Shown here in pieces: positions 1,425 to 63,844 of a stretch of 64,000 bases of DNA. The notes beneath the pieces are model-generated. The model did not search any database, was not told where the DNA came from, and saw only the letters and a program-made list of their open reading frames with translations. The stretch covers positions 416,001-480,000 of the forward strand of contig CAXXKT010000001.1 of the NCBI GenBank assembly GCA_963662405.2. Direction: 5' to 3'. This DNA comes from Syntrophales bacterium. Its GTDB lineage: Bacteria > Desulfobacterota > Syntrophia > Syntrophales > UBA2210. Position 1 is the stretch's first letter. Every line of letters begins with the position of its first letter. A program made the position numbers and the translations under genes.

Positions 1425-1471
1425 GCCTCACTTTGGTAGTATGGTTGGTCTGAATCCCAACGGTTTTCTCA

Positions 1472-3446: not shown

Positions 3447-3459
3447 ACCGTTCACCCTT

Positions 3460-3933: not shown

Positions 3934-3947
3934 CTCTTCACCTCTCT

Positions 3948-7801: not shown

Positions 7802-8110
7802 ATGGACGATACGATCACCCGTATCATGGAGATCGAGAAACGGTGCGCCGACGAGATCGAAGGGGCTCAGCAGGCGTCACGGCGGACGATCGAGGAGCAC
7901 CGGAAGGCCGTCGAGAAAGGGAAGGCGGAAGAGAACACCCGGATTGCCGGAGAGAATGAGGCTCGGCTGAAGGAGACGGTCGCGGAGGAACAGAAAAAGA
8001 TCGAAGCGGCATTTCACGAGGCGGAGGGCGATCTGGAGGAGCTCTTTCGGGATACATCATTAAAACGGGAGATACGGGAACGGATCGTCTCCATCCTGCT
8101 GGCGGATTGA
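7802..8110 (+). CDS. V/A-type ATPase subunit G/H-like (operon 2)
   Basis: 102-aa coiled coil at the head of the operon. Confidence 0.65.
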   Translation: MDDTITRIMEIEKRCADEIEGAQQASRRTIEEHRKAVEKGKAEENTRIAGENEARLKETVAEEQKKIEAAFHEAEGDLEELFRDTSLKREIRERIVSILLAD

Positions 8111-8116
8111 AAAACC

Positions 8117-9046
8117 ATGAGATACTATGCGGACGACAGCTACCTCCACGCGAGGATTTACGCCATGAGGAGCCGTCTCATCCCATCCGACGGGTACGCC
8201 CCGCTCCAGCGGGAGTACGAGGCCTCATATGCCGGCCCCCACGGGATGATCGAGGCAAAGGAGGGGACCTTCCGGGAGCAGATCGCCCCTATCATTCATT
8301 TGGCCGAGGCGACGGAGCGATACGCCCCCCTCTTTATCGCGTTTCTCCGCCGGTACGAGGCGAATAACGTGAAGCTCCTCCTGGCAAAGGCATTCGGGAG
8401 GCGATCCATCGAACAGTGGTACGATATCGGCCCCTACGCCACCCTCGATCGGGATCTCTTCGATGGTGATCCGGCCCCGGACGACCTGCAGGCGGCCCTG
8501 GCCGGGACCTACCTGGACGGGATATTCGAGGGAAGGGCAACCTACGAGCGGATCGAGGATCGCGTTGATATCCTCACCGCCCGGCACTTCTTTGACACGT
8601 CGGACGCCTTCCCCCCCGAGGGGCGGGAGGTCTTCCGGGATTTCATCCTCCGACGGCTCGCCGTCCTCATGGTCATCCGGCAGTGGCGGTTCCGGGTCAC
8701 TTACGGCTGGAGCGACGAGCGGATCTGGGCCTACCGGGACGAACTGGGAGCCCTCTTCGGGGAGACCGACTGGCCGCAGGTGAGGGAGCTCGTGGGGGTG
8801 CTCGTCCGGCGGCTCAGGGAGATGGGGGGGCAGACCCCGGGCCCGGCGGAGGCGGAGTCATTCCTCGAACGTTCCTATTACCGGTGGGTCGCGTCGATGT
8901 TTCACCGGGATTTCCACTCCGTCCACTGCGTGATGGCGTACCTGTGGCTCCTGGACTATCAGATACGGAACCTCTTGTGCATCATCGAGGGGATCAGGTT
9001 CGGCCTGTCCCCCGAGGCGATACTCGAAACGATCATCAGCGATTGA
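8117..9046 (+). CDS. V/A-type ATPase subunit C (operon 2)
   Basis: YLHARIYAMRSRL, YEANNVK and YQIRNL..IIEG motifs. Confidence 0.85.
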   Translation: MRYYADDSYLHARIYAMRSRLIPSDGYAPLQREYEASYAGPHGMIEAKEGTFREQIAPIIHLAEATERYAPLFIAFLRRYEANNVKLLLAKAFGRRSIEQWYDIGPYATLDRDLFDGDPAPDDLQAALAGTYLDGIFEGRATYERIEDRVDILTARHFFDTSDAFPPEGREVFRDFILRRLAVLMVIRQWRFRVTYGWSDERIWAYRDELGALFGETDWPQVRELVGVLVRRLREMGGQTPGPAEAESFLERSYYRWVASMFHRDFHSVHCVMAYLWLLDYQIRNLLCIIEGIRFGLSPEAILETIISD

Positions 9047-9054
9047 GGACGCCT

Positions 9055-10947
9055 ATGTTCGTCAAGTCCGATATCAGGAGGGTCTCCATCGCCCTCGAAC
9101 GGCGGTTCTACCACGAGGTCTACCGTGCTCTCGGCGAAGCGGGGATCATTCACCTGGCCCCCCCGCGGGACCGGGACGCCGTGATGGACGCGCCCCTGCG
9201 TGAGGAAGAGACACGGGTAAAAGAGATCCTCGCGGGGATCGAACATGCCTTGCAGACCCTTCATATCGAGCCGGGGGCGACCGCCGGGCACGCGATCGAT
9301 ACCGCTCGTGACGGGGCCTTCGCCTCGAAGGTGCAGCGGGAGCTTGAGCGCGTGGAACGGGTGCGTTCGCGGATTCATGAAACATTGGAAACGGCGGACC
9401 GGCGCGTGGAGTACCGCGCGGCCCTGGACCGGATGGGGATCGACCCGCCGGCCCTGCACGGGGCACGGCTGGTCCGGACGGTCTTCGGGACCGTGGCGGA
9501 GACCGAGTGGGAGCCGCCGACCGGCGAGCGATTCGTCGTTGCAAAGGCCAATAGCTACGTCTGCGGCGCCGCCCTTCCGGCAGATTTCCCCGCCATGCTT
9601 CAGTTTCTGAGGGGATACGGCTTTACGGACCATTCCAACGAGATCACCGGTATGTCCGTCACGGAACTGGAGTTTCGCGCGGAGACCCTGAAGGGGCGGC
9701 TCGCCACCCTCGATCGGTATCTGGTCAATCTGCGCAAGACGGTGGGGCCGACCCTGGCGGAGCTGTATGCCCCCTACCGGGAATACGGGGAGGTCTTCGC
9801 AGCGATGAAGCTCTCCCTCTTCTCCGCGAAGGCCCTTTTCATCGCGGGGTGGATGGACGCGAAGGACCGGGAGTGGCTCTTCGAGATCCTCCGGGGGATC
9901 TGCGGCGACCGCTTCATCGCCGTCGTCTCCGATCGGCGGGACCCCGATGCCCCGGTGCGCCTCATGAACAGCCGGCTCCTCAGGCCCTTCGAGCTCCTCG
10001 TGAAGACGATGGGGATGCCGGCGAACAGCGAGATCGACCCCACGCCCCTGACGGCCGTTACCTTCGTCGTCATGTTCGGCCTGATGTTCGGCGACCTCGG
10101 CCAGGGGATCGTCATCGCCCTCGGCGGCCTCCTCCTCCGGCGGATGGCGAAGATGCGAGGAGACCCGGAATCGACCATCGGCCAGGCCGGGGGGATCTTG
10201 GTCGCCTGCGGCCTCTCCGCCGCCGTCTGCGGCATCCTCTACGGCAGCGTCTTCTCGAACGAGCACCTCATCCCCGCGCTCCTCTTCCATCCCATCGAAA
10301 ATATCATGCCCCTCTTCGCCGTCACGATCCTTCTCGGGGTCCTCTTCATCAGCCTGGGACTCGGCGTCAACGTCCTCAACAACCTGATGAACGGGAACTA
10401 TACCGAGGCACTCCTCGAGAAGCGGGGGCTCGCCGTCTTCATCCTCTACGGCGCCGTCGTGATCCTTGCCGTGCGCTGCACCCTCACCGGGCAGGGACCC
10501 TCGCCGTGGGCGGTCGGCGCCTTCGTCCTCTTCCCCCTCGCGGTCTTCTCGCTCCGGGGCGTCCTCGGCCCGCTCCTTTTCAAGAGTCAAAAACCGCACA
10601 GCGCGGTCGAATACATCATCGAGACCTGCGTGGAGATCCTGGAGATCGGCCTGAGCATGCTGGCCAACACCGTCTCCTTCATCAGGGTCGGTGCCTTCGC
10701 CCTCTCCCACGCGGGTCTGAGCATCGTGACGTACACCCTCGCCGGGATCGTCGATCCGGCGATGCGCTCCGTGGGTGCCATCATTGTCATCATCGTGGGG
10801 AATGTCTTCATTATCGGCTTCGAATGCCTCATCTGTCTGATCCAGTCGATGCGGCTCGAGTACTACGAGTTCTTCAGCAAGTTTTTCAGGGGGGACGGGG
10901 TGGGCTTTGTCCCCTTCAGACTCAAGGCAACAAACCCGGAGGTGTAG
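9055..10947 (+). CDS. V/A-type ATPase subunit I (operon 2)
   Basis: EIDPTP, GLMFGDLGQG, SFIRVGAFALSH, QSMRLEYYEFF; start taken at MFVKS. Confidence 0.95.
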   Translation: MFVKSDIRRVSIALERRFYHEVYRALGEAGIIHLAPPRDRDAVMDAPLREEETRVKEILAGIEHALQTLHIEPGATAGHAIDTARDGAFASKVQRELERVERVRSRIHETLETADRRVEYRAALDRMGIDPPALHGARLVRTVFGTVAETEWEPPTGERFVVAKANSYVCGAALPADFPAMLQFLRGYGFTDHSNEITGMSVTELEFRAETLKGRLATLDRYLVNLRKTVGPTLAELYAPYREYGEVFAAMKLSLFSAKALFIAGWMDAKDREWLFEILRGICGDRFIAVVSDRRDPDAPVRLMNSRLLRPFELLVKTMGMPANSEIDPTPLTAVTFVVMFGLMFGDLGQGIVIALGGLLLRRMAKMRGDPESTIGQAGGILVACGLSAAVCGILYGSVFSNEHLIPALLFHPIENIMPLFAVTILLGVLFISLGLGVNVLNNLMNGNYTEALLEKRGLAVFILYGAVVILAVRCTLTGQGPSPWAVGAFVLFPLAVFSLRGVLGPLLFKSQKPHSAVEYIIETCVEILEIGLSMLANTVSFIRVGAFALSHAGLSIVTYTLAGIVDPAMRSVGAIIVIIVGNVFIIGFECLICLIQSMRLEYYEFFSKFFRGDGVGFVPFRLKATNPEV

Positions 10948-10948
10948 G

Positions 10949-11287
10949 ATGACCAGGAACAAAAAGGCTGTCATTTTTCTGTTGACGTGTCTCATCGTCG
11001 CCCCCTTTGTCATATTCCCCGCCGTGATGCTGGCGGCCGGCGATGAAGCGGCCGAGGCCGCCCTGGACGGGGGATGGGTAGGGATGGCGTACCTGTCCGC
11101 CGCCCTGGCCGTGGGGCTGGCCTGCATCGCGAGCGCCTTCGCCGTCGCCCGGATCGGTTCGGCGGGGATCGGCGCGATGAGCGAGAAGGAGGAGCTGACG
11201 GGGCGGATACTGATCTTCCTCGGTCTTGCCGAAGGGATCGCTATCTACGGCCTGATCATCGCGATCATGATCCTGAACAAGCTGTAG
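10949..11287 (+). CDS. V/A-type ATPase rotor subunit K, single hairpin plus N-terminal hydrophobic segment
   Basis: GLAEGIAIYG motif. Confidence 0.92.
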   Translation: MTRNKKAVIFLLTCLIVAPFVIFPAVMLAAGDEAAEAALDGGWVGMAYLSAALAVGLACIASAFAVARIGSAGIGAMSEKEELTGRILIFLGLAEGIAIYGLIIAIMILNKL

Positions 11288-11288
11288 C

Positions 11289-11597
11289 ATGAAGATATTT
11301 ATTATCGGTGACATCGATACGGTAAGCGCCTTCCGCCTCTCGGGGGTGGAAGGGGTGATCGCCGACAGGGAGAACGTCCCGGAACGCCTCGAAGAGGTGC
11401 TCCGGGGGGGAACGGCGGGGATCGTGATGGTGACGAGCGAACTCGCCGGGGACCTCCAGGAGCGGATCACGCAGATCAACCTCGCCCCGGAGGGGCCCGT
11501 CGTGATCGAGATCCCGGGTATCGACGAGCCTGAGGGATTCCGCCGGTCCGTCGTGGGGTACATCGCCGAGGCCCTCGGCATCTCCCTCGAATCGTAG
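11289..11597 (+). CDS. V/A-type ATPase subunit F (operon 2)
   Basis: MKIFIIGDIDTVSAFRLSGVEG..PVVIEIP. Confidence 0.92.
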   Translation: MKIFIIGDIDTVSAFRLSGVEGVIADRENVPERLEEVLRGGTAGIVMVTSELAGDLQERITQINLAPEGPVVIEIPGIDEPEGFRRSVVGYIAEALGISLES

Positions 11598-11610
11598 GAA
11601 AGGGGTCGCC

Positions 11611-12213
11611 ATGAAAGAGCCGCCGCTGGAAGAGTCGATCAGGAAGGAGGCCGAGGAGACCGTGCGCGCCGTCAGGGAACGGGAGGCCGCTGAGATCCGG
11701 GAAATGGACGAGTCCTGCGCCGCCGAGATTGAGGAATTTAAAAAGAAGACAGAGTCAGAGACCCGGGCGCGGATCGAGCAGGAACGATCCCGGCTTGAAA
11801 ACAAAGGCCTCCTGGAACGGAAAAAACTGAAACTGCGCGGCCTCGAAGCATTCATCGGCCGTATGGTGGAGGAGGCGGTGGGGACCATGCGGGACGACCC
11901 ACGGTATAAGGAATTCTTCCTGGACCGGGTGCGCGAGGCCGCCCATGAAATACAGGCCGGCATCGAGGTTTCCCTGCATACGGCAGACCTCCCCCTCGAA
12001 AAGGAGATCATGGCGGCCGCGGGGAAGACGGGGCGAAACCCCGACGTCGCGGTGCGCGCGGACCCGGCGATCCGGTGGGGAGGGTGCGCCATCAGCGACG
12101 GGGCAACGGGGCGCATCTTCAACAGCACCATTGAGCGGATCTACTACCGGCAATCGGCGACGATCCGCCGGGAGATCACGAAGATCCTGAACGAGAAGGG
12201 CTTCTCCTTCTAG
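11611..12213 (+). CDS. V/A-type ATPase subunit E (operon 2)
   Basis: Coiled coil plus GGC..NSTIE C-terminal motif. Confidence 0.85.
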   Translation: MKEPPLEESIRKEAEETVRAVREREAAEIREMDESCAAEIEEFKKKTESETRARIEQERSRLENKGLLERKKLKLRGLEAFIGRMVEEAVGTMRDDPRYKEFFLDRVREAAHEIQAGIEVSLHTADLPLEKEIMAAAGKTGRNPDVAVRADPAIRWGGCAISDGATGRIFNSTIERIYYRQSATIRREITKILNEKGFSF

Positions 12214-12230
12214 CTGACGGAGGCAGGGAC

Positions 12231-14003
12231 GTGGAAGAGATGCTGACAGGACGGGTGATATCGGTAAACGGCCCGATCGTCAAGGCGGCGGGCCTCAGGG
12301 GAATACGGATGTTCGACATCGCCGAGGTGGGGGCCGACCGGTTGATCGGCGAGGTGATCCGTCTGATCGGGGACATCACCGTCATCCAGGTGTACGAGGA
12401 CAACACGGGGCTGATGCCGGGAGACGAGGTGACTTCTTCCTGCCGCCCCCTGTCGGTCCTCCTGGGACCGGGTCTCATCGCGAACATCTACGACGGGATC
12501 CAGCGCCCCCTCGTCGGGATCTCCGAGGTCTGCGGCGCCTATATCCGCAAGGGGATCAAGCTCTCTCCCCTCGACACGAAGAAGAAATGGGAATTCAACC
12601 CTCTGATAAAGGCGGGGACCGCGGTGCGGGAGGGGGACATCCTTGGAGAAATCCCGGAGTCTCCACTCGTTACGCACCGGGTTCTCGTCCCCCCCGGCGT
12701 ATCCGGCACGCTGGCCGCAATCGTCGGGTCGGGGGAGTATACGATCGAGGATGAGCTCTACACCGTCGAGAACGGCGCCGCCCCCTACCAGGGAAAACTG
12801 GCCGCCTACTGGCCGGTCCGCAAACCGCGGCCGAGCCGGGGGAACAAGAAGCCCTTCATCCCCCTGATGACGGGGCAGCGGATCATCGACACCTTCTTCC
12901 CCATCGCCCGCGGAGGGACGGCAACCATCCCCGGCGGGTTCGGGACGGGAAAGACCATGACCCAGCACGCCCTGGCGAAGTGGTGCAACGCCGACATCAT
13001 CGTCTATATCGGGTGCGGGGAGCGGGGCAACGAGATGACCGACGTCCTGACAGACTTCCCGAAGCTGATCGACGAGCGCAACGGACGCCCCCTGATCGAG
13101 CGGACCGTGATGATCGCCAATACCTCGAACATGCCCGTCCCCGCCCGCGAGGTGAGCATCTACACCGGGGTGACCATCGCGGAGTACTACCGCGACATGG
13201 GGTACAGCGTGGCGGTGATGGCCGACTCCACCTCCCGGTGGGCGGAGGCCCTGCGGGAGCTCGCCAGCCGGCTCGGTGACATGCCGGCCGAGGAGGGTTT
13301 CCCTCCTTACCTGGCAACCCGCCTCGCCGAGTTCTACGAACGGGCGGGCCTCGTGGAGACCCTCTCCGGAACCGACGGCGATATCAGCATCATCGGCGCG
13401 GTATCCCCCCCCGGGGGGGACTTCTCGGAGCCCGTCACCCAGCACACCTCGCGCTTCGTGCGGTGCTTCTGGGCCCTGGACAAGATCCTCGCCGATGCCC
13501 GCCACTACCCCTCCATCAGCTGGATCGACAGCTACACCGAGTACCTCCACGACATCGAGGGGTGGTGGAAGGACCTGGACCCCGAGTGGCTCACGATCCG
13601 GGGGGAGGCGATGGGGATCCTCCTCGAAGACAACCGCCTCCAGCAGGTGGTAAAACTCGTCGGGAGCGACGCCATGCCCCCGGCCCAGCAGTTCATCCTC
13701 TTCGTGGCGGAGATGATCAAGAACGCCTTCCTCCAGCAGAACTCCTTCGACCCCGTCGACAAGTACTGCCCCCCGGAGAAACAGCTCAAGCTCCTCAAGG
13801 CGATCCTGGATCTGAACAAAAGAGGAGAGGAACTGGTGAAGGGCGGGATGAGCGTCAAGGAGATCGCCGCCCTCGATGTGGTGTCGGAGATGGTGCGGCT
13901 CAAGTCCGAGGTCCCCAACAAGGAGCTGGGCAGGATCGACGACTACCGGGAGCGGCTCGCCGCGGGGCTCGATTCGCTCAAAGAGAAAACGGGAGAGGTG
14001 TAG
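12231..14003 (+). CDS. V/A-type ATPase subunit A (operon 2)
   Basis: [17 protein letters not shown] and [12 protein letters not shown] motifs. Confidence 0.97.
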   Translation: MEEMLTGRVISVNGPIVKAAGLRGIRMFDIAEVGADRLIGEVIRLIGDITVIQVYEDNTGLMPGDEVTSSCRPLSVLLGPGLIANIYDGIQRPLVGISEVCGAYIRKGIKLSPLDTKKKWEFNPLIKAGTAVREGDILGEIPESPLVTHRVLVPPGVSGTLAAIVGSGEYTIEDELYTVENGAAPYQGKLAAYWPVRKPRPSRGNKKPFIPLMTGQRIIDTFFPIARGGTATIPGGFGTGKTMTQHALAKWCNADIIVYIGCGERGNEMTDVLTDFPKLIDERNGRPLIERTVMIANTSNMPVPAREVSIYTGVTIAEYYRDMGYSVAVMADSTSRWAEALRELASRLGDMPAEEGFPPYLATRLAEFYERAGLVETLSGTDGDISIIGAVSPPGGDFSEPVTQHTSRFVRCFWALDKILADARHYPSISWIDSYTEYLHDIEGWWKDLDPEWLTIRGEAMGILLEDNRLQQVVKLVGSDAMPPAQQFILFVAEMIKNAFLQQNSFDPVDKYCPPEKQLKLLKAILDLNKRGEELVKGGMSVKEIAALDVVSEMVRLKSEVPNKELGRIDDYRERLAAGLDSLKEKTGEV

Positions 14004-14006
14004 CCT

Positions 14007-15401
14007 ATGGCCGCTGAGATCGAATACACGAACCTGTCCGGGATCTCCGGCCCCCTGATCTTCGTCGAGGGGGTCAAGGGCGTCGGGTACGGCGAGATCG
14101 TGGAGATTCGGGACGAATCGTCCGAGGTGCGGATCGGCCAGACCCTCGAGGTGGACGAGGACCGCGCCATCGTCCAGGTCTTCGAGGGGACGAGCGGGCT
14201 CTCCGTCAAGGGGGCGCGGGTCACCTTCGTGGGGAGATCGCTCGAGATCCCCGTCCACCGCGACATGCTCGGCCGGGTCTTCGACGGGCTGGGGCGCCCC
14301 ACCGACGGCGCCCCCCCGGTGATCACCGACAACATGATGAACGTCAACGGCCTCCCCGTCAACCCCTGGAGCCGGGAGTACCCGCGCGACTTCATCCAGA
14401 CGGGGATCTCGGCCATCGACGGGATGAACACCCTGATCCGGGGGCAGAAGCTCCCCATCTTCTCCGGGAGCGGGATGCCCCACAACCTGATCGCCGCCCA
14501 GATCGCGCGGCAGGCCCGGATCCTCTCCTCGGAGGAGGAGTTTACCGTAATCTTCGCCGCCATGGGGGTCAAGTTCGACATGGCGCGCTTCTTCATCGAC
14601 TCCCTTGAGGAATCGGGGGTCCTCACGCATTCGGCCATATTCCTCTCCCTCGCCGACGCCCCCTCGATCGAACGCCTCATCACCCCCCGCGTCGCCCTGA
14701 CGCTGGCCGAGCACCTCGCCTTCGAGGAGGGGATGCACGTCCTCGTCATCATGACCGACATGACGAACTACTGCGAGTCCCTCCGCGAGCTGTCCAGCTC
14801 GCGGGGCGAGATCCCCTCCCGGAAGGGTTACCCCGGCTACCTCTACAGCGACCTCGCCGCGATCTACGAGCGCGCCGGGCGGCTCAAAGGAATGAACGGC
14901 TCGATCACGCAGGTCCCGATCCTCACCATGCCGAGCGACGACATCTCCCACCCCGTCCCCGACCTGACGGGGTACATCACCGAGGGGCAAATCGTCCTGG
15001 AGCGCGAACTTTTCAACAAGGGGATCTATCCCCCCATCGCCGGGCTCCCCTCCCTGTCGCGCCTGATGAAGGACGGGATCGGCGAGGGGCGGACGCGCAA
15101 GGACCACGCCCAGAACGCCGCCCAACTCTTCGCCTCCTACGCGAAGGTCAAACGGATCAGGGCCCTGGCGGCCATCGTTGGCGAGGAGGAGCTCTCCGAA
15201 CTGGACAAGATCTACCTGAAATTCGGGACCGCCTTCGAGGAGCGCTTCCTCCGGCAGGGGCCCGACGAGAACCGCTCGATCATCGAGACCCTCGACCTGG
15301 GGTGGCAGATGCTCTCCCTCCTCCCGAAGGACGAGCTGTACCGGGTCTCCATGGAGGAGATCCAGCGCTACTACATACCGCAGCAGGAGGCCAGTGGATA
15401 A
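14007..15401 (+). CDS. V/A-type ATPase subunit B
   Basis: [33 protein letters not shown] motifs. Confidence 0.97.
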
Positions 15402-16024
15402 TGCCGGCGATCGATATCCCCCCCACCAAATCGTCCCTGCGCAGGCTCAAGGAGGACCTCGCCTTCGCCTACGAGGGGTACGACCTCCTCAACCAGAAGC
15501 GCGAGATCCTCGCCATCGAGATCATGCGACACATCGGCGAGATCCGGAAGATGGAGGCCGCCCTCGCGGGGGTCCTCGGCGAACTGTACGCGGCCTACCG
15601 TAAGGCGGCCGTCGAAATGGGATCGGACACGATCACCCGGAAGAGCTGTTCAGAGAAACGGTCCTATTTCTTCCACATGGAATTCACGAAACTGATGGGG
15701 CTCCGGCTCCCGGTGATCAGACTCTCCCCCAAGCGCCCCCGGATCACCGCCACCCTGCCGGGGACGACCGTCGCCTACGATGAGGCGAAGGAAAAATCGC
15801 GCGCGGCCCTCGAGGCCCTCGCCGAGTACGCCACCATCACCAAGGCGATCATGATGCTCTCACGGGAACTGAAGAAGGTCCAGCGGCGGGTCAACGCCCT
15901 CGAGAAGATCTTCATCCCCCAGCACGAAGAGGCGAAGAAGTACATCTCCGACCGGATCGAGGAGATGGAACGGGAAGAGATCTTCGTCAAGAAGCTGATC
16001 AGGCAGCGGGTGGAGGGGGAGTGA
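15401..16024 (+). CDS. V/A-type ATPase subunit D
   Basis: PTKSSL..GYDLL..KR and QRRVNALE motifs; start at MPAID. Confidence 0.93.
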   Translation: MPAIDIPPTKSSLRRLKEDLAFAYEGYDLLNQKREILAIEIMRHIGEIRKMEAALAGVLGELYAAYRKAAVEMGSDTITRKSCSEKRSYFFHMEFTKLMGLRLPVIRLSPKRPRITATLPGTTVAYDEAKEKSRAALEALAEYATITKAIMMLSRELKKVQRRVNALEKIFIPQHEEAKKYISDRIEEMEREEIFVKKLIRQRVEGE

Positions 16025-16082: not shown

Positions 16083-16490
16083 CTAAGTTTGGACAACAAA
16101 GTCCCCAACCTGTACCTCTTCAAGCTTAAGCAAGAAAGTATTTCCTGGAGTGATCGTTTCTGTAACCGTCTCTGGCTGAACAAAGGTACTAAACAAATCC
16201 AATCCTTTTCGAGTTCGCTCCTTTACTATTTCTTTAGTGTCAGGGTGCTTCCCATAACCACATGATTTTAGGGTGCTGATCTTTTCTTGTACGTGTGTGG
16301 CTTCGGCTTTGCCTTTGACTATTTCAAGTTTTTCTAATTCCTCTTTTGTTTCTGGATCAACAATTGTTTCACCCAGACCGATAATAATAAACTTGTCGCC
16401 TTGATTTATGCCCCCGTTTCTTCCCTTATTAATAACAACGGTATAAGGATCAACTACCTTTAAAACCTTTGCAATATATTTGTCAGGCAT
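16083..16490 (-). CDS. AT-rich hypothetical protein, small beta-barrel resembling the FlgT C-terminal domain
   Basis: VVINKG..GINQGDKF..I.DPET.EEL pattern; SD GAGGAG; start overlaps the upstream stop. Confidence 0.7.
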   Translation of the reverse strand: MPDKYIAKVLKVVDPYTVVINKGRNGGINQGDKFIIIGLGETIVDPETKEELEKLEIVKGKAEATHVQEKISTLKSCGYGKHPDTKEIVKERTRKGLDLFSTFVQPETVTETITPGNTFLLKLEEVQVGDFVVQT

Positions 16491-17007
16491 TATTCTCCTC
16501 CTGTTGATCAAGTTCTGAAAGAATACTAAATGGTATGACTGGTCTGATTATAATATTGTTCAACTGGGACATAATGGAAGATATTGAAGCCTCGTCGATC
16601 AACTCCTTAATAATCTTTATTTGTATAAGTTTTTCTTGTACGTGATGTACAACGCCCACCAGAGCGACTCTTTCAACACCGTCTTCTACCATGTAACATC
16701 CAACAACAATGTTGTTAAGAAAATTTTCATTTTTCCTAATGATGAGTATTTTCTCTTTGTTAAGAAATTTAATGGGAGATTCTTGGCTGGGCACAAGCTT
16801 TCTCGATTGCCAAATATCAAAAATTACTTTCAGAAGGATAAAACAAGCAGAAAGCAATAATAACAATGTAAAAAGAAGCCATTTAATTGAAATTTGGGTA
16901 TTAATATCTATGAATAGTTGCGTAATTCCGGAAAGAAATCCAATAACACCCAAGGTGATTGAAAGACCTGATAAACTAAAAAAATGTTTCTTTATTTCTT
17001 CACGCAT
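16483..17007 (-). CDS. AT-rich hypothetical membrane protein with two N-terminal TM segments
   Basis: Long ORF in AT-rich DNA, translationally coupled to the 16083 gene. Confidence 0.7.
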   Translation of the reverse strand: MREEIKKHFFSLSGLSITLGVIGFLSGITQLFIDINTQISIKWLLFTLLLLLSACFILLKVIFDIWQSRKLVPSQESPIKFLNKEKILIIRKNENFLNNIVVGCYMVEDGVERVALVGVVHHVQEKLIQIKIIKELIDEASISSIMSQLNNIIIRPVIPFSILSELDQQEENNA

Positions 17008-17078
17008 GCTTACTTTAAACCCTAGCAAGTAGTCTAAACTAGAGGCGTTTCCCGTATTAATTTACAACACATTCCCTA

Positions 17079-17257
17079 TCACAACACACAAAAGCCCCAT
17101 CGCTCGGGTTCGAGTAACGGGGCTTTTCGCAATCAGACCATACGCGCTCCTTTGTGTTTGAGGTGCGGGCCGGACAGGTAAAGCTAACAAAAAACAAGTT
17201 CGTAATGAAATCGAAGGGAAGGATACCTCCCCGGGGGATTCCGGTCAAGGATTTAAT
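17079..17257 (-). repeat. ~178-bp promoter-leader-terminator repeat, copy 1
   Basis: Aligns over its full length with 18638, 20016 and 21294. Confidence 0.97.
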
Positions 17258-17273
17258 TACAGCCCGAGGCATC

Positions 17274-17298
17274 AAAAAAGGAACCATGGGCCTTTTTT
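17274..17298. terminator. Hairpin terminator after the APC permease
   Basis: AAAAAAGG..CCTTTTTT. Confidence 0.5.
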
Positions 17299-17302
17299 CT
17301 CC

Positions 17303-18566
17303 TCACCTATGGTGGCCCTCCGTACGTACATGGCGAAGCAGGATCGGGCGCCCGAACATGGCGATGATTACCAGGAGACCGAAGCGGGTCAGTTTGGATC
17401 AGGCGAATAATCAGGGCAACCGATGCGGAGGCGCTGGCCAGCGCGCCAAACCCTGTGAAGACCCGCGCACCCACCCGTTCCCGAAACGCGAGGCCGCATA
17501 CGACGGTAAAAGTGAACAGAAATGCGAGGCTGGCAGCTTCAACGAGGGTGGTGAGCGCCCCGAAAACGGAGAGGATCGCCGCCAGCGCGCCGAGTACTAT
17601 CACCGCCCGGTTCGGTATGCCTGCCTTGTTCTTGTGATCGAGGGCGGCCGGCAACTCACTGTCTTCCGCAACCTCATAGACGAGCCGCGCTGTTGCAAAG
17701 AGCGTCGAATTGATGGCCGATCCGGTAGAGAACGCCGCGGCAATCGTCACAATGACGAGGCCGGCGGTCCCGAGTGCCTGCCGGCCCGCGATGGCAAGAG
17801 CCACTTCCTGGTGCTGCATAACCTGGTCCGCCCCGATCAGCATCACCGTCCCCAGCGCGACCACGATGTACACACCGATCACGGCAATGATGGCCGACAG
17901 CACCGCGAGCGGGAGGGTTTTCCGCGGGTTATCGATATCATCATAATCGTAGGTCAGCAGCTGAAAACCCTCATAGGCCATAAACACGGAGGCCGCGCCG
18001 AATAACGCCGCGCCGATCCCCGTGTCCGGCACGTTCCGGGAGAGCATCGGCGGGTCCCACTGGGCAAGCCCCCACCCCGCCAGCCCCACAAGAACGACTA
18101 TCTTGAACCACACGAGAAAGACCTCGACACCGCCGGCTTCACCGACGCCGCGCAGATTCAAGCAAATGAACGCAATCAGGATGGCAACGGCGGCCGCGCG
18201 CGGGAACCACGGTCCCAGACCGGCAACATACCCGAGGTACTGCCCGAAGGTGGAGGCGTATACCGCGTTTGTCAGCACATACCCGACGATGAGCACCCAC
18301 GAAAGGCTGCCGGCGGCCCCCTCCGCGTTGATCTCGCGGAGAAACGTGAACGCGCCTCCCCCTTCGCCGTAGTAATCGGCCAGTTTTACGTAGCTGTATC
18401 CCGTGGCCAGGGCGATGAGGCCGGCAGCCAGGAAACTGAGCCATGTCAATGCGCCGGCGATTCCGACAACGACGCCGAGTGTGGAAAAGATGCCGCCGCC
18501 GATCATACCGCCGACGGCCATCGACCATGTGGCGTTGAAATTAAGCTTGGTTTGAGGCTGATTCAT
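17303..18566 (-). CDS. APC family amino acid permease, frameshift near the C-terminus
   Basis: GGMIGGGIF and FMAYEGF motifs; last TM helix GLLVIIAMFGRPILL continues in another frame to a TGA at 17303. Confidence 0.9.
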
Positions 18567-18637
18567 GGTAAATTAGGGACACTTCCCTATTTTTTACAAA
18601 TTTCTTTTTATCTGTTTTGGCCTCTCAGCCATCCCCG

Positions 18638-18813
18638 TCACAAAACACAAAAGCCCCATCGCTCGGGTTCGAGTAATGGGGCTTTTCGCAGTCAGACCAT
18701 ACGCGCTCCCTTTTGTGTATGAGGTGCGGGCCGGATGGGTAAAACTAAAAAAGTTTGTAATGAAATCAAAAGAAAGGATACCTCCCCCCGAGGATTCCGG
18801 TCAAGGATTTTAT
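18638..18813 (-). repeat. ~178-bp repeat, copy 2
   Basis: Direct alignment with copy 1. Confidence 0.97.
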
Positions 18814-18874
18814 CGCGGACCGGGGTGTCGGTTCCGGAGCGCAACGGGTTCCATCGAATCGTTCCGACAATCCT

Positions 18875-19936
18875 TCACTGTTTGTCCAGCAACCCATCAT
18901 CGAGTATCTGCTGGAAATGGTCTTTCACGGTCTGCTCGACGGGGATATACGACATGCCCAGATCTGTCTTGCTGTAAGAGCTATCGAGTCTGATATGAAT
19001 CCCGACATTTCTGCTCGCAAATTTCCGCGTGTAGCCCATCACCGGGGCAATGAGCCAGAACAGGAATTTGGGGGCCTGTCTCCGGGGAAACGGATACCGG
19101 TCTCCAAAATGTTTTCGAAGGATATTCGCTATATCGAGAAGCGATACTTCTTCACTCACGACGATGTGCCGCCCGCTCGCTTCCGGGGTGTACCCCGCCT
19201 TGACGTGGGCGGACGCCACGTCACGCACATCAACGATACAACTGTACAATTCCGGAACCCCGGTTTTGTAGATACCATTGCCAAAGAGGATCATGGTGTT
19301 GATGCTCATGGAGTCTTTCCTCTTCGACAGAGAAGGGCCAAGGATCCATCCGGGGTTGATCGTCAGCAGATCCCATTGCTCCTGTTCCGCGGCGAGAGCC
19401 CAGGCTTCTCTTTCCGCGATTGTCTTTGAATAGTTATAGGGCTGGTGGTCGGCACTGCTCGTGACGTTCCATTCCTTTTCAGTGAGTATGCCCTCCGGGG
19501 CCAGCGCCATGTCGGCATTGTCGCCGTATATCGCCACGACACTGCTGGTGAGCACCACCCGCTTCATCGTCGGGGTTCTTTGCGCCGATTCGAGGACATT
19601 GCGTGTCCCCTCTCTGGCCGGTCGTATCAATTCTTCTCCAGGATTCTTGATTCCGGTTATGAAGTAGGGTGAGGCGGTGTGCATCACCAGCTCGCACCCT
19701 CGCATCGGTTCATCGAAACTTCCCGGATTCAGAAGATCCGCCTTGAACAACGTCAACTGCCCGGTCGCTGTTTCCGCCAAGGCTTTCAGATGTTCGATCT
19801 TTTGCATATCCGAAGGGTCGCGTACCGTTGCGTGAACAGGGGTTCCCTCTTCCAGCAAGATCTTGATTATCCAGGAAGCCACGTAACCCGTACCCCCCGT
19901 AACCAATACCGGTTTGGTCTTATCGATTTCGCGCAT
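18875..19936 (-). CDS. NAD-dependent epimerase/dehydratase (aldehyde reductase/dihydroflavonol reductase-like extended SDR)
   Basis: TGGTGYVA, HTASP and YNYSK motifs; start MREID after SD AAGGAGG. Confidence 0.92.
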   Translation of the reverse strand: MREIDKTKPVLVTGGTGYVASWIIKILLEEGTPVHATVRDPSDMQKIEHLKALAETATGQLTLFKADLLNPGSFDEPMRGCELVMHTASPYFITGIKNPGEELIRPAREGTRNVLESAQRTPTMKRVVLTSSVVAIYGDNADMALAPEGILTEKEWNVTSSADHQPYNYSKTIAEREAWALAAEQEQWDLLTINPGWILGPSLSKRKDSMSINTMILFGNGIYKTGVPELYSCIVDVRDVASAHVKAGYTPEASGRHIVVSEEVSLLDIANILRKHFGDRYPFPRRQAPKFLFWLIAPVMGYTRKFASRNVGIHIRLDSSYSKTDLGMSYIPVEQTVKDHFQQILDDGLLDKQ

Positions 19937-20015
19937 GACACCCTCCTTATCTATCCTCGGAAACGCAGGTCTCCTCTCGAGTATTGGACAGGTTTCTCTT
20001 TTTCCGCCTTTACAA

Positions 20016-20192
20016 TCACAAAACACAAAAGCCCCATCGCTCGGTTCGAGTAACGGGGCTTTTCGCAATCAGACCATACGCGCTCCTTTTATGTATCAGG
20101 TGCGGGCCGGACAGGTACAGCTAACAAACAAGCTCGTAATGAAATCAAAGGGAAGGATACCTCCCTGGGGGGATTCCGGTCAAGGATTTTAT
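20016..20192 (-). repeat. ~178-bp repeat, copy 3
   Basis: Direct alignment with copy 1. Confidence 0.97.
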
Positions 20193-20415
20193 TGAAAGGG
20201 CGGGGTGCTCATAGGTTTCAGGCGGCACCGGGAGGTGGGGATCGATCGCCTGTCTGAACGAGAGGGTTGAGGGACGCCAGGCAGATCTTTCGGACAGCAT
20301 GAGGAGCTGTTTGCGGAGTTGATGCCGGTCGTATCCGCCCTCCTTGCCATACCATCCAAGTGGGGGTCAATGACTCTGTGGTGTTGATCGAGCTTGCCTA
20401 TGAGGTTCTGAGGTT

Positions 20416-20448
20416 AAAAAAACTCCGGCGAGCCGCTGCCCGCCGGAG
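20416..20448 (-). terminator. Intrinsic terminator of the 20516 gene
   Basis: CTCCGGCG..CGCCGGAG followed by T7 on the minus strand. Confidence 0.7.
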
Positions 20449-20515
20449 CGAGAAGATCCACTGACGTAACGAAGTAAAAAAAACGGCGTTGGTGACGAAA
20501 TGTCCTGACAGGCCT

Positions 20516-21097
20516 TTAGCTTACAGGTTTCTTGTCCTGAATTTTCCCCATCCGTTTTCCCAGCCAGTCTTTCAGCCTGTCAACAAGAGAAGGCTTTTTG
20601 AACGTGAGCTTTGTTTGCGCCGTCTTATCGGAACTCATGGACGTGACTTTGGCGGTATAGACACCAGCCGGAATAGTCGGTTGGGTAATGACAACAAACT
20701 GATTATATTTCCCGTCATCGGCATACGTGCCGCTGACGTTCCCTTTCAGGATTCCGGTGACCTTCGCGAGGGGGCCTATCGGGGCGGTAAATTGACCGGC
20801 GGCATCGACTTTTCCGTCAGCTACCACCACCTCGGTTTCATCAGGGCCAAAGAGCGTTACGAATACGGAATCTTCAGGCACGAATCCCGACCCTCCGAAT
20901 ACAATCTTTTGCTTCATCAATGTAGCAGCACCGAGACTGACGCATTCGGGGTTCACAATCAATTGAGGTCCCGTAATCTCAGGATCAAAGGTTTGTGGCC
21001 CGGCCGTACACCCGGTAAGCAGAAGGCCCCCTGTTACCCCCCATAACACTACCAGAAACAAAAACGCCAAAACCCTGCTTTTTTGAATGCTCAACAT
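20516..21097 (-). CDS. Putative lipoprotein with beta-rich domain, function unknown
   Basis: Signal peptide with lipobox LLTGC. Confidence 0.75.
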   Translation of the reverse strand: MLSIQKSRVLAFLFLVVLWGVTGGLLLTGCTAGPQTFDPEITGPQLIVNPECVSLGAATLMKQKIVFGGSGFVPEDSVFVTLFGPDETEVVVADGKVDAAGQFTAPIGPLAKVTGILKGNVSGTYADDGKYNQFVVITQPTIPAGVYTAKVTSMSSDKTAQTKLTFKKPSLVDRLKDWLGKRMGKIQDKKPVS

Positions 21098-21293
21098 GTA
21101 AAGTCCCCCCCTGAGTTTTCAATTTATTATAGCATGGTGATGTAAGATGTGGTGCTCTTGTCGGCATGTGGCATTTCTACCGTAGGAACAGTATATTTTC
21201 TCGCGCAATATTTTTCAAGAGAAAATCATCGCTTTCGGATGAAATAGCGACAGCTCCCTCTGTATGGGACAATAAAAATTTGAAGTACAAGCT

Positions 21294-21471
21294 TCACACG
21301 ACACAAAAGTCCCATCGCTCGGTTCGAGAAACGGGCTTTTCGCAATCAGGCCATAGGCGTTCCTTTTTGTTTGAAGTGCGGGCCGGACAGATACAGCCAG
21401 CAATAAAATAAGTTCGTAATGAAATCAAAAGGAAGGGTACCTCCCCGGGGGATGCCGGTCAAGGGCTTTAT
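21294..21471 (-). repeat. ~178-bp repeat, copy 4 (more diverged)
   Basis: Alignment with more substitutions than copies 1-3. Confidence 0.95.
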
Positions 21472-21633
21472 CGAGGTGCATTTCGTATGGTGTATCAGTG
21501 ACCGAAGGGAAAAACCAGTTTCCCGCGAAGGACGAACCAACTGATTTCCCCGAGATTTTGACACTTCACACTAAATATCTTTGTCCTGCCATCCGATAGT
21601 GCTATAAAGCCCCGCAGTACAAGGAGGGGATAC

Positions 21634-23415
21634 ATGCGCGAACACTGGGATACCAAGCGGGCCTTCATTCTGGCGGCGATCGGATCGGCGATCGGACTGG
21701 GAAATATCTGGCGTTTCCCCTTCAAATGTTATGAAAACGGCGGCGGGGCGTTTCTCTTCGCCTATCTGATCGCCATGATCACGGCGGGGATTCCCCTCCT
21801 TATCATGGAGATGGGCATCGGTCACCGGTTCGGGCTGGCGGCACCACTCTCATGGAGGACAATCTCAAAAAAATATGAATGGATCGGCTGGTGGGCCGTG
21901 TTCGTATCGTTCGTTATCACCACCTACTACACGGTGGTAATGGCCTGGAGCCTGAATTTTTCTGTCTATTCCTTGAGCCAGGCATGGGGTGACAACCCGT
22001 CAGACTTTTTTTACAACTCATTTCTCCGACTCACGGACAGCCCTTTCAATCTGGGAGGGATACGCGTTCCAATCCTGGTTTCCCTGGCCGCGGCCTGGGT
22101 ACTGATTCTTGCCTCGATCTGGAAGGGCACCCGATCGGTTTCGAAAGTCGTTTATATCACGGTATTTCTGCCGTGGTTGATCCTGATCGTCTTTGTAATC
22201 AGAAGCGTCATGCTTCCGGGAGCCATGGAAGGACTCCATTATTATCTGTACCCCGTCATGGAAAAGCTCATGAATCCCCGTGTCTGGGTGGCGGCCTATG
22301 GGCAGGCCTTTTATTCGCTGTCCATCGGGTTCGGTCTGATTATCGCCTACGCCAGCTATCTCAAACGGGACACCGATATTGTCAGCAGCGCGGTCATCAT
22401 TGCATTGAGTGACGGCGCGACCGCCTTTGTCGGCGGCTTCGCCGTGTTCGGTTCACTGGGTTTTTATGCCCACCTGAATAACCTGCCCGTCACCGAGGTC
22501 TTACAGGGCGGACCGGGGTTGGCATTTGTAACGTATCCGGCGATCATTAATCAGTTGCCGTATTCATGGATCTTCGGGATCCTCTTTTTCCTGATGCTGA
22601 TTACCCTGGCGCTGGATTCCTGTTTTGCCCTGGTGGAATCCGTATCTTCGTCATTGAGGGATAAATTCGGCTGGGGCATTAAGAAATCCAACCTGCTTGT
22701 CGCCATTCCGGGATTTGTGGTCGGCATTATTTTCACGACCGGCGCGGGGTTGTACTGGCTCGATATCGTCGATAAGTGGATGGAGTTCTTTGGGCTGGGG
22801 ATGGTGATCCTCTTTGAAACGATTGTCATCGGGTGGTTTTACGATACGGGAGGTTTGCGGCAGTATGCCAACCGGCCCTCGGATATCAAGATCGGGAGGT
22901 CATGGGAAATCCTCTTGAAATATTTAATCCCGGTTGCACTGGCAATCCTCGTCGTCAGTGAAGGCATCCGGCTGATTCGCATCGGTTATGGTGATTACCC
23001 CGCTTCGGCACTGCTCATAGGAGGGTGGGGCGTGGCATTGATCCTGCCGGTTATTGCCTTCCTGGCCGCCAAGCTCAGAGGGAAAGAAAAATCCCTTTCC
23101 CCTTTGCCGGAGCCCGTGGAAGACCTGACCGATCAGACCGGTTTTCGTCACTATGCCCTTTTCCAGCGAGTCGTCATAGTTTTGATCGTGGTCACCTCTG
23201 TGGTTGCCCTTGTGGCCCGATGTTTTCCCCGTATGACACATTTCGTTGTCCCCGTTGTCATCATCACCATGGTTATCAGCCTCGTGGGGGGATCCGTGTA
23301 TTTTCTGAAAATCTCGTCGGGCAATTTTGAGAAACGGGAAGAATGGCGGGAAAGGTATGCATTGGATCAACAGAGAAGCAGTACCAATCGAGCCCGAAGG
23401 GGTTCCCGCCAATAA
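21634..23415 (+). CDS. Sodium-dependent transporter (NSS/SLC6 family) with C-terminal extension
   Basis: GSAIGLGNIWRFP..ENGGGAF signature. Confidence 0.95.
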   Translation: MREHWDTKRAFILAAIGSAIGLGNIWRFPFKCYENGGGAFLFAYLIAMITAGIPLLIMEMGIGHRFGLAAPLSWRTISKKYEWIGWWAVFVSFVITTYYTVVMAWSLNFSVYSLSQAWGDNPSDFFYNSFLRLTDSPFNLGGIRVPILVSLAAAWVLILASIWKGTRSVSKVVYITVFLPWLILIVFVIRSVMLPGAMEGLHYYLYPVMEKLMNPRVWVAAYGQAFYSLSIGFGLIIAYASYLKRDTDIVSSAVIIALSDGATAFVGGFAVFGSLGFYAHLNNLPVTEVLQGGPGLAFVTYPAIINQLPYSWIFGILFFLMLITLALDSCFALVESVSSSLRDKFGWGIKKSNLLVAIPGFVVGIIFTTGAGLYWLDIVDKWMEFFGLGMVILFETIVIGWFYDTGGLRQYANRPSDIKIGRSWEILLKYLIPVALAILVVSEGIRLIRIGYGDYPASALLIGGWGVALILPVIAFLAAKLRGKEKSLSPLPEPVEDLTDQTGFRHYALFQRVVIVLIVVTSVVALVARCFPRMTHFVVPVVIITMVISLVGGSVYFLKISSGNFEKREEWRERYALDQQRSSTNRARRGSRQ

Positions 23416-24826: not shown

Positions 24827-25242
24827 AGATTCCTCCTTGAGTAATATGATTTCCCGTTGTCCTGTTTTAGTAGATTGTAAGATTCCAAGCGATCAAATGT
24901 ATGATAAACTCAGATCCAGGTTGTTGCCTGGTCCGGCCCTCTCGGCTTATGCCGCAGGAGCTTCATCACAGGCCCCGACGGATCAATAATCGGCAGTAAC
25001 CTTTATTTCTTTAGAAAATAACGTAAAAGGGGAGGAAGAAGGGAAGATCGGACAAGGGGCATCGGGATCTTACGAAAAACGCCGTCCCGGGGGATTTCGC
25101 GCATATTCTGATTCATAAAAGATCGGGTAGTCCCCCGTCGAAAGGCTATACGCTATTCCTCTTGGCACAAGAAACCACGCGAGGATTTCACGGGCTCTCC
25201 CCGCGTTGTGATTTTTCAATCGTTACAGCGACAATAAAACAA

Positions 25243-25978
25243 GGGTCTTGACTAGAACAGCGGTTTATTTTTGAAGTTCTTTAACAACAATTTATAGATA
25301 TCGGTGTTACGGTTGTTGAACCGGAACTCACATTCCTTGAGATGCAGGTAAAAGGTTGATTGTGGAATACCATGGAACTTCATCAGCCTCCGTTTTGCGA
25401 ATGACCAGAAGGATTCAATGCCATTGATGTGGCTTTTCCCCCTGGCAAATTCATTGGCTCCGTGATGAACACGGTAATGCTTTTTGTATCCCAAGTCAAC
25501 CAAACCATCATAGCCTCTCCAACTATCTGAATGTATGACACTATTCGGTTCAACTTTGCCCCTGATAATGGCCTGGAGAGTCTTCCTGGCGCAATCGGGA
25601 ACGATTTCGGTATAGACACTGCCTTTTCGTTGCAGGATACCGAATACAGGGGTTTTTCTCCCGGCCCCACGGCCTCGTTTCCCTTTGATACGTTTTGCAC
25701 CGAAATATGATTCGTCAACCTCGATTTCACCCTGAAATGGTGATTCTTCTTCGCACAGATCAGCTATACGTTGACGAATCAAAGACAGATATCGATTCAC
25801 CGTATTTCTATTGAGTTTTGTTAAAAGAGCGATGGTTTGAGCATCCAAATCGAAGGCAAAATACTTCACGATCTCTCTAAATTTTGCCTCTGAAATTTTG
25901 GAATTTTTTACATACTTGTTACTTATTGACATGACTAGACTCTTAACATATTTCCGTGTGCTGTTCTAGTCAAGACCC
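25243..25978 (-). mobile_element. IS1595-family (IS1016-like) insertion sequence, 736 bp
   Basis: 19-bp perfect terminal IR GGGTCTTGACTAGAACAGC; 8-bp target duplication TAAAACAA at 25235-25242 and 25979-25986. Confidence 0.96.
25252..25932 (-). CDS. IS1595-family transposase
   Basis: EIEVDESYFG, HSDSWRGY, HINGIESFWS and KECEFRFN motifs. Confidence 0.97.
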   Translation of the reverse strand: MSISNKYVKNSKISEAKFREIVKYFAFDLDAQTIALLTKLNRNTVNRYLSLIRQRIADLCEEESPFQGEIEVDESYFGAKRIKGKRGRGAGRKTPVFGILQRKGSVYTEIVPDCARKTLQAIIRGKVEPNSVIHSDSWRGYDGLVDLGYKKHYRVHHGANEFARGKSHINGIESFWSFAKRRLMKFHGIPQSTFYLHLKECEFRFNNRNTDIYKLLLKNFKNKPLF

Positions 25979-26045
25979 TAAAACAAAAGCCCCGTTGCTC
26001 ATTTCGAGAAACGGGGCTCTTGTAATCGGTCCGTATGTGCTCGTT
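25979..26045 (-). repeat. Partial degenerate copy 5 of the repeat (terminator half); terminates the Sel1 gene
   Basis: ACAAAAGCCCCgttGCTC..TTCGAGaAACGGGGCTcTTgtAATC aligns with the repeat terminator. Confidence 0.8.
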
Positions 26046-26051
26046 GTTTCC

Positions 26052-28594: not shown

Positions 28595-28604
28595 GAATTA
28601 TGTG

Positions 28605-28695
28605 TTTAATTAGGGACAGCGCCCATTTTTGTAAATGCCTAAATTAAATCTTATTTTCTGTGATAGGAGAAAAATGGGCGCTGTCCCTAATTAAA
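28605..28695. repeat. 91-bp element with 26-bp perfect inverted repeats (MITE/REP-like)
   Basis: TTTAATTAGGGACAGCGCCCATTTTT ... AAAAATGGGCGCTGTCCCTAATTAAA. Confidence 0.85.
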
Positions 28696-63767: not shown

Positions 63768-63791
63768 AGGGCGATCTCCTTCCCCCGTCAC

Positions 63792-63825: not shown

Positions 63826-63844
63826 CAAAAGATGATCGAATCTC

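Follow-up and report, generated by a model that had tools for sequence, protein, structure and literature searches.

A repeated promoter–leader–terminator element with a minimal open reading frame in a Syntrophales genome: a candidate ribosome-coupled transcription attenuator

In the pyrBI operon of Escherichia coli (leader ORF pyrL), a ribosome that follows close behind RNA polymerase sterically blocks closure of the leader terminator, and no RNA antiterminator is needed; both there and in terminator repression, the distance between the stop codon and the hairpin is the tuning variable (PMC4824070, in part). A stop codon placed 5 bp before tR2 cut termination in E. coli from about 90% to under 10%, and this effect was abolished when translation was uncoupled or removed (passages of the same source). 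In the pil1 locus of Streptococcus gallolyticus, read-through rises when the leader peptide reaches nearer to a premature stem-loop terminator, which is then destabilised by the ribosome (PMC3894217, in part). The leader of Bacillus subtilis vmlR combines an intrinsic terminator with a very short uORF (Met-Ile-Asn), the initiation of which is required and sequence variants of which are tolerated (PMC9226507, in part), and a uORF attenuator of a DUF1127 gene of Sinorhizobium meliloti, in which the uORF ribosome-binding site can be base-paired, has been proposed to monitor ribosome availability (PMC12218461, in part). Homologous 5' control regions preceding non-homologous genes within one genome have been described as putative mobile promoters (PMC3575422, in part) and as "mobile attenuators", which derive from IS terminators (PMC2965389, in part).

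In this work, a repeat located in a 64,000-nucleotide stretch (hereafter, the window) of a 3.8-Mb Syntrophales genome (G000) was analysed. We judge it a little better than an even bet that this element is a minimal attenuator of the pyrBI/pil1 type, dependent on a coupled ribosome, whose multiplication has given rise to a regulon of accessory genes throughout the genome.

Window copies and the element family

An earlier note on this DNA had recognised a minus-strand repeat uniting a promoter, a leader and a hairpin, which was borne out by four full copies (80–92% identical pairwise, with inter-copy BLAST E-values from 1e-37 to 1e-67) and one partial copy retaining only the 3' part (Table 1). 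Its coordinates, promoter spacers, deviating -10 hexamer of copy 4 and hairpin with a U/G tail were all found to be correct, and the proposed gene distances of 70–80 nt (about 200 nt in copy 4) agree with likely downstream starts at 17007, 18566, 19936, and 21097, i.e., 72, 72, 79, and 195 nt beyond the unit ends. What the note had missed was a Shine-Dalgarno (SD) site followed by a mini-ORF of the ATG-NNN-TGA type, as well as the genome-wide spread of the unit. The order in each full copy is an AAGGAG-like SD, 5 nt, the mini-ORF, another 5 nt and the A-run opening the stem; the mini-ORF reads ATG GTC TGA in copies 1–3 and ATG GCC TGA in copy 4, and its stop codon lies approximately 8–9 nt 5' of the stem.

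Table 1. Positions of the element copies and of associated features (window coordinates, unless a locus or contig is given).
Feature	Position	Strand	Remarks
Copy 1, whole unit	about 17079-17260	-	
Copy 1, -35 hexamer TTGACC	17243..17248	-	supported by family geometry
Copy 1, -10 hexamer TATCCT	17220..17225	-	17-nt spacer
Copy 1, anti-SD strand GCACCT	17161..17166	-	pairs with AGGAGC; weak covariation
Copy 1, Shine-Dalgarno site AAGGAG	17147..17152	-	
Copy 1, two-codon mini-ORF ATG GTC TGA (Met-Val-stop)	17133..17141	-	selection seen family-wide
Copy 1, intrinsic terminator	17079..17127	-	stem 17090-17127 (AAAAGCCCC..GGGGCTTTT), then U/G tail
Low-GC (0.33-0.39) two-gene unit behind copy 1	16083..17007	-	gene 2: weak FlgT_C match below cut-off
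Copy 2	18638..18816	-	-35 18799-18804, -10 18775-18780 (18-nt spacer), SD 18706-18711, mini-ORF 18692-18700, stem 18649-18686
APC-family amino acid permease behind copy 2	17307..18566	-	PF13520
Copy 3	20015..20195	-	-35 20178-20183, -10 20154-20159 (18-nt spacer), SD 20083-20088, mini-ORF 20069-20077, stem 20027-20063
NAD-dependent epimerase/SDR behind copy 3	18875..19936	-	PF01370
Copy 4	21292..21474	-	-35 21457-21462, -10 TACCCT 21434-21439, mini-ORF 21346-21354
Copy 4, SD-like AAGGAA	21360-21365	-	weaker stem 21305-21340
Putative 193-aa lipoprotein behind copy 4	20516..21097	-	judged from N-terminal hydrophobic stretch and Cys
Copy 5, 3' part only	about 25975..26050	-	start codon decayed (ACG GAC CGA); hairpin 25985-26021
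IS1595-family element directly after copy 5 T-run	25242..25977	-	transposase 25252-25932; ends by eye
attI-like motif behind element	G000:C1:158308, 236384, 245914, 693551, 1830870, 2673532; C2:287996		
atpD-facing elements in relatives	L269:9572-9699, L273:2472-2606, L274:1374-1520, L275:1651-1800, L276:5430-5552		

Copy 5 is now positioned as the terminator of a Sel1/PG-binding gene, and the transposase of the IS1595-family element following it is present in eight identical copies in the genome. A 297-aa protein encoded at 26917-27810 (minus strand), upstream of a Sel1/PG-binding gene, combines a signal-like N-terminus with a Hint domain at its C-terminal end. The 193-aa protein behind copy 4 had no match in Pfam, NCBIfam or PADLOC. 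The genes downstream of the window copies, which the note called cassette genes, do not look like integron cassettes: by eye, no attC site was seen, and the unit, devoid of paired R boxes, lies upstream of the genes. Several other features of the window were recorded. Two divergent V/A-type ATPase gene sets (1-5951, minus strand, and 7802-16024, plus strand), showing inverted similarity to each other, flank a Usp gene, and a short palindromic spacer of the AATTAGGGACA..CCCTA type occurs at two gene boundaries (18566-18596 and 28603-28633), similar spacers being found behind elements in the locus L269. Moreover, a G-rich/C-rich inverted repeat followed by Ts covers the -10 box of copy 1 (17216-17232, minus strand) and occupies the same place in copies 2–4; it showed no covariation within the window subfamily and might terminate read-through arriving from upstream.

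A profile constructed from the copies gave 71 non-overlapping matches in G000 at E<0.01, while none was obtained with the same family HMM on the reversed genome even at E<=5. Sixty matches extend to the terminator, of which 57 with E<=5e-4 were analysed (three weak ones, E>5e-4, were dropped). It counts against a ribosome-coupled model that these copies are kin and that the genes were called with a crude ORF finder. TTGAC is located 80–112 nt 5' of the ATG in 52 of the 57 copies, and in 51 of these 52 it is accompanied by TA at a spacer of 16–18. It should be stressed that the promoter is supported because this geometry is family-wide, and not because the region is enriched in promoter-like sites, which as a class occur there at chance level (12 versus 10.0 +/- 3.0 in shuffles). 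The T at position -7 is present in just 12 of the 51 element promoters and is also often missing at other promoter-like sites of G000 (36/98). The ATG was found in 50/57 copies and a stop at codon 3 in 43/57; the seven copies that lack the ATG, two of which have GTG, speak against a ribosome-coupled model. The U-rich leader between promoter and SD splits into subfamilies, one of which comprises the four window copies. Altogether, the family accounts for 38 of the 177 strong intergenic hairpin/T-run (terminator-like) sites of the genome.

A covariance model matched 49 of 61 relatives (G000 included), often many times per genome, and, with as many as 52 matches in a single genome, every one of 15 genomes from a second class. 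It also matched 49 of 151 genomes of the phylum, a count that overstates the range of the family, because the weak matches (E > about 1e-4) include generic terminators without SD and ATG (e.g., L123, L124, L127, L128, and L135). The hairpin pattern alone was found in at least 110 database stretches, and 96 of the 110 listed matches carry titles of the Deltaproteobacteria/Desulfobacterota type, including Syntrophales, Desulfobacterales and Desulfatiglandales; among the matches listed, the named records with the main G000 subfamily are mostly Syntrophales or Syntrophaceae. The plasmid collection contained no match to the element and viral contigs only three pattern matches. A hairpin of the element-terminator sequence type also ends the leaders L187, L188, and L235, which are presumably cobalamin riboswitches, as their motif looks like one, and L188 precedes CobU. 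The family is apparently undescribed: it has no Rfam model, and no description of it was found in the main texts of the literature searched.

Folding of the leader and the hairpin

The RNAalifold analysis of the 95-nt core of the 57 copies yielded the terminator as the sole consensus helix. It has 14 pairs, 92% of cells paired and two-sided changes in 9 of the 14 pairs, a value as high being reached in 0 of 500 shuffles, and a T-run is present after the stem. The earlier note had also claimed a conserved middle block (CCGGCCCGCAC..GGAGCGCGTATGG) able to fold as an imperfect stem. This stem can form, and it is an anti-SD:SD hairpin over the translation start site, but the block is conserved only within the window subfamily, the 5' leader being different in the other approximately 53 copies. 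Among 12 sequences of this subfamily, 93% of cells are paired and one compensatory change, from C-G to U-A, was seen (4 sequences). The structural covariation for which the note had asked is found in the terminator helix, but is weak in the middle stem (18–25 of 500 shuffles as high), and for the anti-SD:SD partners across families it is not significant (1182 of 5000 permutations as good), which weighs against a ribosome-coupled model. The SD of the element is more paired than that of ordinary genes (0.59 versus 0.44).

No competing antiterminator was detected: a fold without the stem base is worse by a median of 14.1 kcal/mol (47 copies), and a duplex of the SD with the 5' arm amounts to about -5.8 versus about -20.8 kcal/mol for the terminator. 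With no RNA fold to rival the terminator and no conservation of the 5' leader, the element does not appear to be a riboswitch. The view of the earlier note that it represents a new cis-regulatory RNA family therefore stands for a cis-acting promoter-leader-terminator unit, but not for a riboswitch-like structured RNA. A metabolite-binding riboswitch, proposed there by analogy with the TPP switch, would fit the promoter-leader-terminator-gene layout and the like hairpin at the end of the three cobalamin-type leaders mentioned above; however, a conserved covarying aptamer upstream is missing, as is any metabolic theme downstream, and the Rfam scan of the window at gathering thresholds returned the TPP riboswitch only (63830-63933), with one chance match in an E-value scan of 16800-21700. 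We regard this class as extremely improbable. The TPP riboswitch itself (63780-63933, minus strand) has its own hairpin and T-run of unrelated sequence, followed by a thiamine pyrophosphokinase gene.

Two candidates were rejected. A leader-peptide attenuator of the trp/his type is contradicted by the lack of control-codon runs (mostly 1–3 codons, with 15 residues at codon 2) and of a competing antiterminator helix. A DNA operator was considered because ATGRTC-T-GATCAT is palindromic in the main G000 subfamily, but this palindrome is absent from the window subfamily and from distant homologues, in which the ATG and the stop persist.

The hairpin could also be the target of a protein, i.e., a NusG paralogue (RfaH/UpxY/LoaP-like) or another RNA-binding factor recognising the start region or the hairpin, allowing polymerase past the terminator and possibly loading the ribosome, as RfaH is also able to do. 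G000 has a second NusG-family gene, located directly after a ribD-like gene (named from sequence), which passes the UpxY cut-off (106.4 versus 100 bits); this UpxY-family paralogue is kept at 37–87% identity in 49/60 relatives, and a second NusG-family match was found in 4/5 element-bearing distant genomes. In addition, the hairpin sequence CCCYRTTTCTC..GAGAGRYRGGG recurs in several orders, although the hits were selected on it. However, a close UpxY orthologue was not found (E<=1e-25) in the element-bearing genomes G154, G124, G131, G121, G158, G170, G081, and G184, while it is present in genomes without listed elements (e.g., G075, G095, G101, and G127), and because of this poor co-occurrence it was rejected as an obligatory partner. 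Furthermore, no ops-like sequence is common to the families, and the NusG-paralogue model alone leaves the selection for an in-frame stop (see below) unexplained. Protein-dependent antitermination is therefore, in our opinion, unlikely. The paralogue (L077:1501-2004, i.e., G000:C1:1449233-1449733) is a stand-alone gene and is not located beside a polysaccharide operon at this locus.

Translation start site and downstream genes

As the database hits were chosen on the hairpin alone, the sequence upstream of them is independent of the query. After omission of five of the 112 rows, which lacked 170 nt of upstream sequence, SD plus ATG was found 13–27 nt 5' of the stem in 81 of 107 among the matches listed, versus 0–8 in eight equal control windows; dereplication at 55% similarity of the matches listed left it in 25/42 (controls 0–5). 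Of these 81, 58 have a stop in frame with the ATG ahead of the stem; the two other frames give 15 and 17, and shuffled sequences 28.5 +/- 4.3 (maximum 44). After dereplication of the matches listed, the count is 17/25, compared with 4 and 4 in the other frames, a value that none of 2000 shuffles attained. The remaining 23 of the 81 ORFs among the matches listed run into or through the hairpin without stopping before it, which is a point against the ribosome-coupled model. Within the same matches, TGA, TAA, and TAG serve as the stop 33, 21, and 4 times, respectively, and codon 2 encodes 15 different residues. The freedom of codon 2 and the use of all three stops imply that the start site matters, and not the peptide, and a functional leader-peptide product is ruled out by the same freedom. 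Moreover, the ATG-to-stem distance is near-fixed (mostly 16–20 nt) whatever the ORF length, whereas the stop-to-stem distance is not the fixed quantity, and therefore the stop may serve chiefly to avoid a non-stop mRNA, which also counts against the ribosome-coupled model. What is conserved is thus the spacing between a translation start site and the stem, with an early stop favoured and the peptide irrelevant.

The stop-to-stem distance was 4–10 nt in all 33 elements in which the finder detected the hairpin. Strong intrinsic terminators are rare at ordinary gene ends of G000 (70 at 1559 ends), and their stop-to-stem median is 29 nt; eight lie within 12 nt, four of them overlapping the ORF. 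A distance of 12 nt between stop and terminator is a known criterion for transcription-translation coupling, and 62 of the 70 ordinary terminators lie farther, as would be expected if the host couples the two processes.

The earlier note had supposed that the downstream genes depend on read-through, and the gene context agrees with this. In 48/57 copies, the unit and the ORF that follows share a strand, and a promoter-like motif of its own is found in one of 40 downstream genes versus 193 of 1075 ordinary first genes (0.17 versus 0.85 per kb). The other suggestion of the note, that the terminated RNA of approximately 130 nt is itself the product (a trans-acting sRNA or a ribosome decoy) and the downstream gene incidental, has in its favour that its promoter and strong terminator make every copy a complete unit of transcription, and attenuator RNAs can reportedly act in trans. 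We hold it to be very unlikely, considering that the leader is not conserved between subfamilies and that the next gene is so regularly co-oriented and, in 39/40 cases, without its own promoter motif.

The downstream genes are of low GC content (median 0.48 versus 0.55; below 0.45 in 39% versus 6% of ORFs). The 46 downstream proteins outside the window include defence proteins (ThsB, GajA, PD-Lambda-5 A, PDC-S31, and Ppl-like), Mrr, HNH and UvrD-type helicase proteins, two GGDEF proteins, three with an HD domain (HD_5), an integron integrase that exceeds the TIGR02249 cut-off, and one integrase N-terminal fragment, while 21 have no Pfam match. A comparable mix, with the addition of PAS sensors, solute-binding proteins, RT, SNF2, and many unknowns, was found among 50 proteins behind distant homologues. 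The scanned downstream proteins comprise no translation factor or ABC-F protein and have no common metabolic theme that would point to a signal, which is an argument against the ribosome-coupled model. An attI-like motif occurs 13 times (E<0.01), and in seven cases it is placed 81–224 nt behind the ATG of an element (Table 1), which would put the element in the place of an integron Pc promoter; the reading as attI is backed by two copies that lie 1.3–2.6 kb downstream of the integrase-leading elements. Integron integrases are mostly LexA/SOS-controlled, and the presence of an integrase gene behind the element leader suggests a trigger other than LexA/SOS.

The same gene content might be served by a constitutive dampener, i.e., a portable cassette in which the position of the AUG fixes the leak of the terminator, ensuring low, safe expression of foreign genes with no regulated signal. 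The functionally unrelated, low-GC downstream genes, many of them potentially toxic defence genes, are in line with this, and duplicated promoters before unrelated genes are a known phenomenon (PMC3575422, in part). Nevertheless, a weaker promoter would achieve dampening more simply, the raised pairing of the SD fits a tunable site, and at least two classes share the geometry, and we consider a mere dampener quite unlikely.

As regards mobility, three relatives carry the window subfamily at the same site, oriented towards the 3' end of atpD; the intervening genes differ, or atpD fragments have remained, or the element has been reduced to its 5' half (Table 1). Duplicated atpD fragments, or a 5' half-element fused to an atpD-like remnant, mark a variable gene-capture region. 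We infer that units of element plus gene may be gained and lost via recombination between copies, which would fit the variation of the atpD locus. About 60 dispersed copies with tandem arrays could also be accounted for if the element were a MITE/REP-like mobile repeat, selfish or neutral and without a function in regulation. The same 322-aa IS110 transposase ends 52–53 nt upstream of three elements (L033, L038, and L046), in a conserved segment 5' of the promoter, IS1595 directly follows the T-run of two elements (in the window and at G000:C3:212033), and some copies flank tRNA-linked islands. However, the four window copies have neither terminal inverted repeats nor a target-site duplication (ends by eye), by which a MITE or REP would be recognised, and the frame-specific selection of stops, the free codon 2, the compensatory stem changes and the strand-fixed position upstream of genes make such a repeat highly improbable.

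Proposed mode of action and comparison with known systems

Returning to the ribosome-coupled attenuator, RNA polymerase would start at the sigma70-type promoter and first produce a U-rich leader of about 60–75 nt, followed in the RNA by the SD, partly hidden in the weak hairpin, by the AUG, usually one sense codon and a stop, with the strong terminator stem approximately 18 nt after the A of the AUG. By default the terminator would close, and the downstream gene would be off or low. If a ribosome were to load on the nascent RNA before release of the polymerase and move on through one or two codons as far as the stop, its front would probably come to lie over the stem base; with the base covered, the hairpin could not close and read-through would follow. 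The stop would also keep the terminated RNA from becoming a non-stop message. The level of read-through would then reflect the race between translation initiation and the dwell of polymerase at the terminator. The 30S toeprint is at +16 from the A of the AUG (PMC9226507, in part), so that a ribosome advanced by one codon would extend to about +19 and overlie the first G-C pairs of the stem, at +18/+19. It speaks against the model that an E. coli terminator 30 bp past an AUG lost only about 10% of its efficiency, the small loss being explained by the ribosome not catching up within the first 100 nt unless a pause couples it (PMC4824070, in part); in the hairpin alignment of the element, no clear consensus pause was seen by eye.

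At the level of sequence, the element has the features of the pyrBI/pil1 class, that is, a terminator in the leader and a start site whose ribosome is predicted to overlap the 5' arm of the hairpin. A broader and more tentative proposal, which we consider possible but rather doubtful, is that of a Desulfobacterota-wide, factor-free regulon, in which the SD-AUG-X-stop site set against a terminator would sense translation-initiation capacity and unlock anti-phage, c-di-GMP and integron integrase genes together with cassette arrays, the unit serving also as a plug-in promoter and recombination handle that domesticates foreign genes. If the attenuator itself works as proposed, it would give syntrophic and sulfate-reducing bacteria a global layer of control, acting after initiation, over defence, signalling and integron genes. 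To our knowledge, ribosome-dependent attenuators are otherwise one-off controls of single operons, while here one minimal attenuator design would be used about 60 times in a 3.8-Mb genome. Both the mini-ORFs and the leaders are too short for standard annotation. If the element works as proposed, its copies (varying in codon 2, stop type, and spacing) would be a natural variant library for ribosome blocking of intrinsic termination at the first codons.

The pyrL leader, which shares with the element the presumed steric action of the ribosome and the tuning by stop-to-hairpin distance, differs from it by a single long leader ORF, UTP-sensitive pauses and the control of one biosynthetic operon (PMC4824070, in part), whereas the element, known here from sequence, has an ORF of mostly 1–3 codons and about 60 occurrences before unrelated accessory genes. 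In pil1, where a ribosome likewise comes close to a leader terminator, the control is exerted at one locus through phase-variable GCAGA repeats (PMC3894217, in part), while the element is multi-copy and has no repeat tract in the ORF. The vmlR leader, similar in its very short and sequence-tolerant uORF, relies on anti-antiterminator and antiterminator helices and serves an ABC-F resistance factor (PMC9226507, in part), unlike the element, in which neither a competing helix nor, among the scanned proteins, an ABC-F protein or translation factor was found. The DUF1127 attenuator of S. meliloti resembles it in the proposed monitoring of ribosomes and the pairing of the ribosome-binding site, but it is of the opposite sign (uORF translation promotes attenuation), concerns a single gene and has a longer uORF (PMC12218461, in part). 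With the mobile promoters and mobile attenuators, the element has in common homologous control regions before non-homologous genes; in contrast to the IS-derived attenuators (PMC2965389, in part), it has a translation start site that is under selection, and it is retained in more than one class. The consulted portions of PMC3575422 and PMC2965389 do not mention the family, and those of the latter have 0 occurrences of Syntroph, Geobacter, Desulf, and delta. As an attenuator of a known class, the element would stand out by its minimal ORF and by its candidate role in a regulon that spans the genome and comprises accessory and defence genes.
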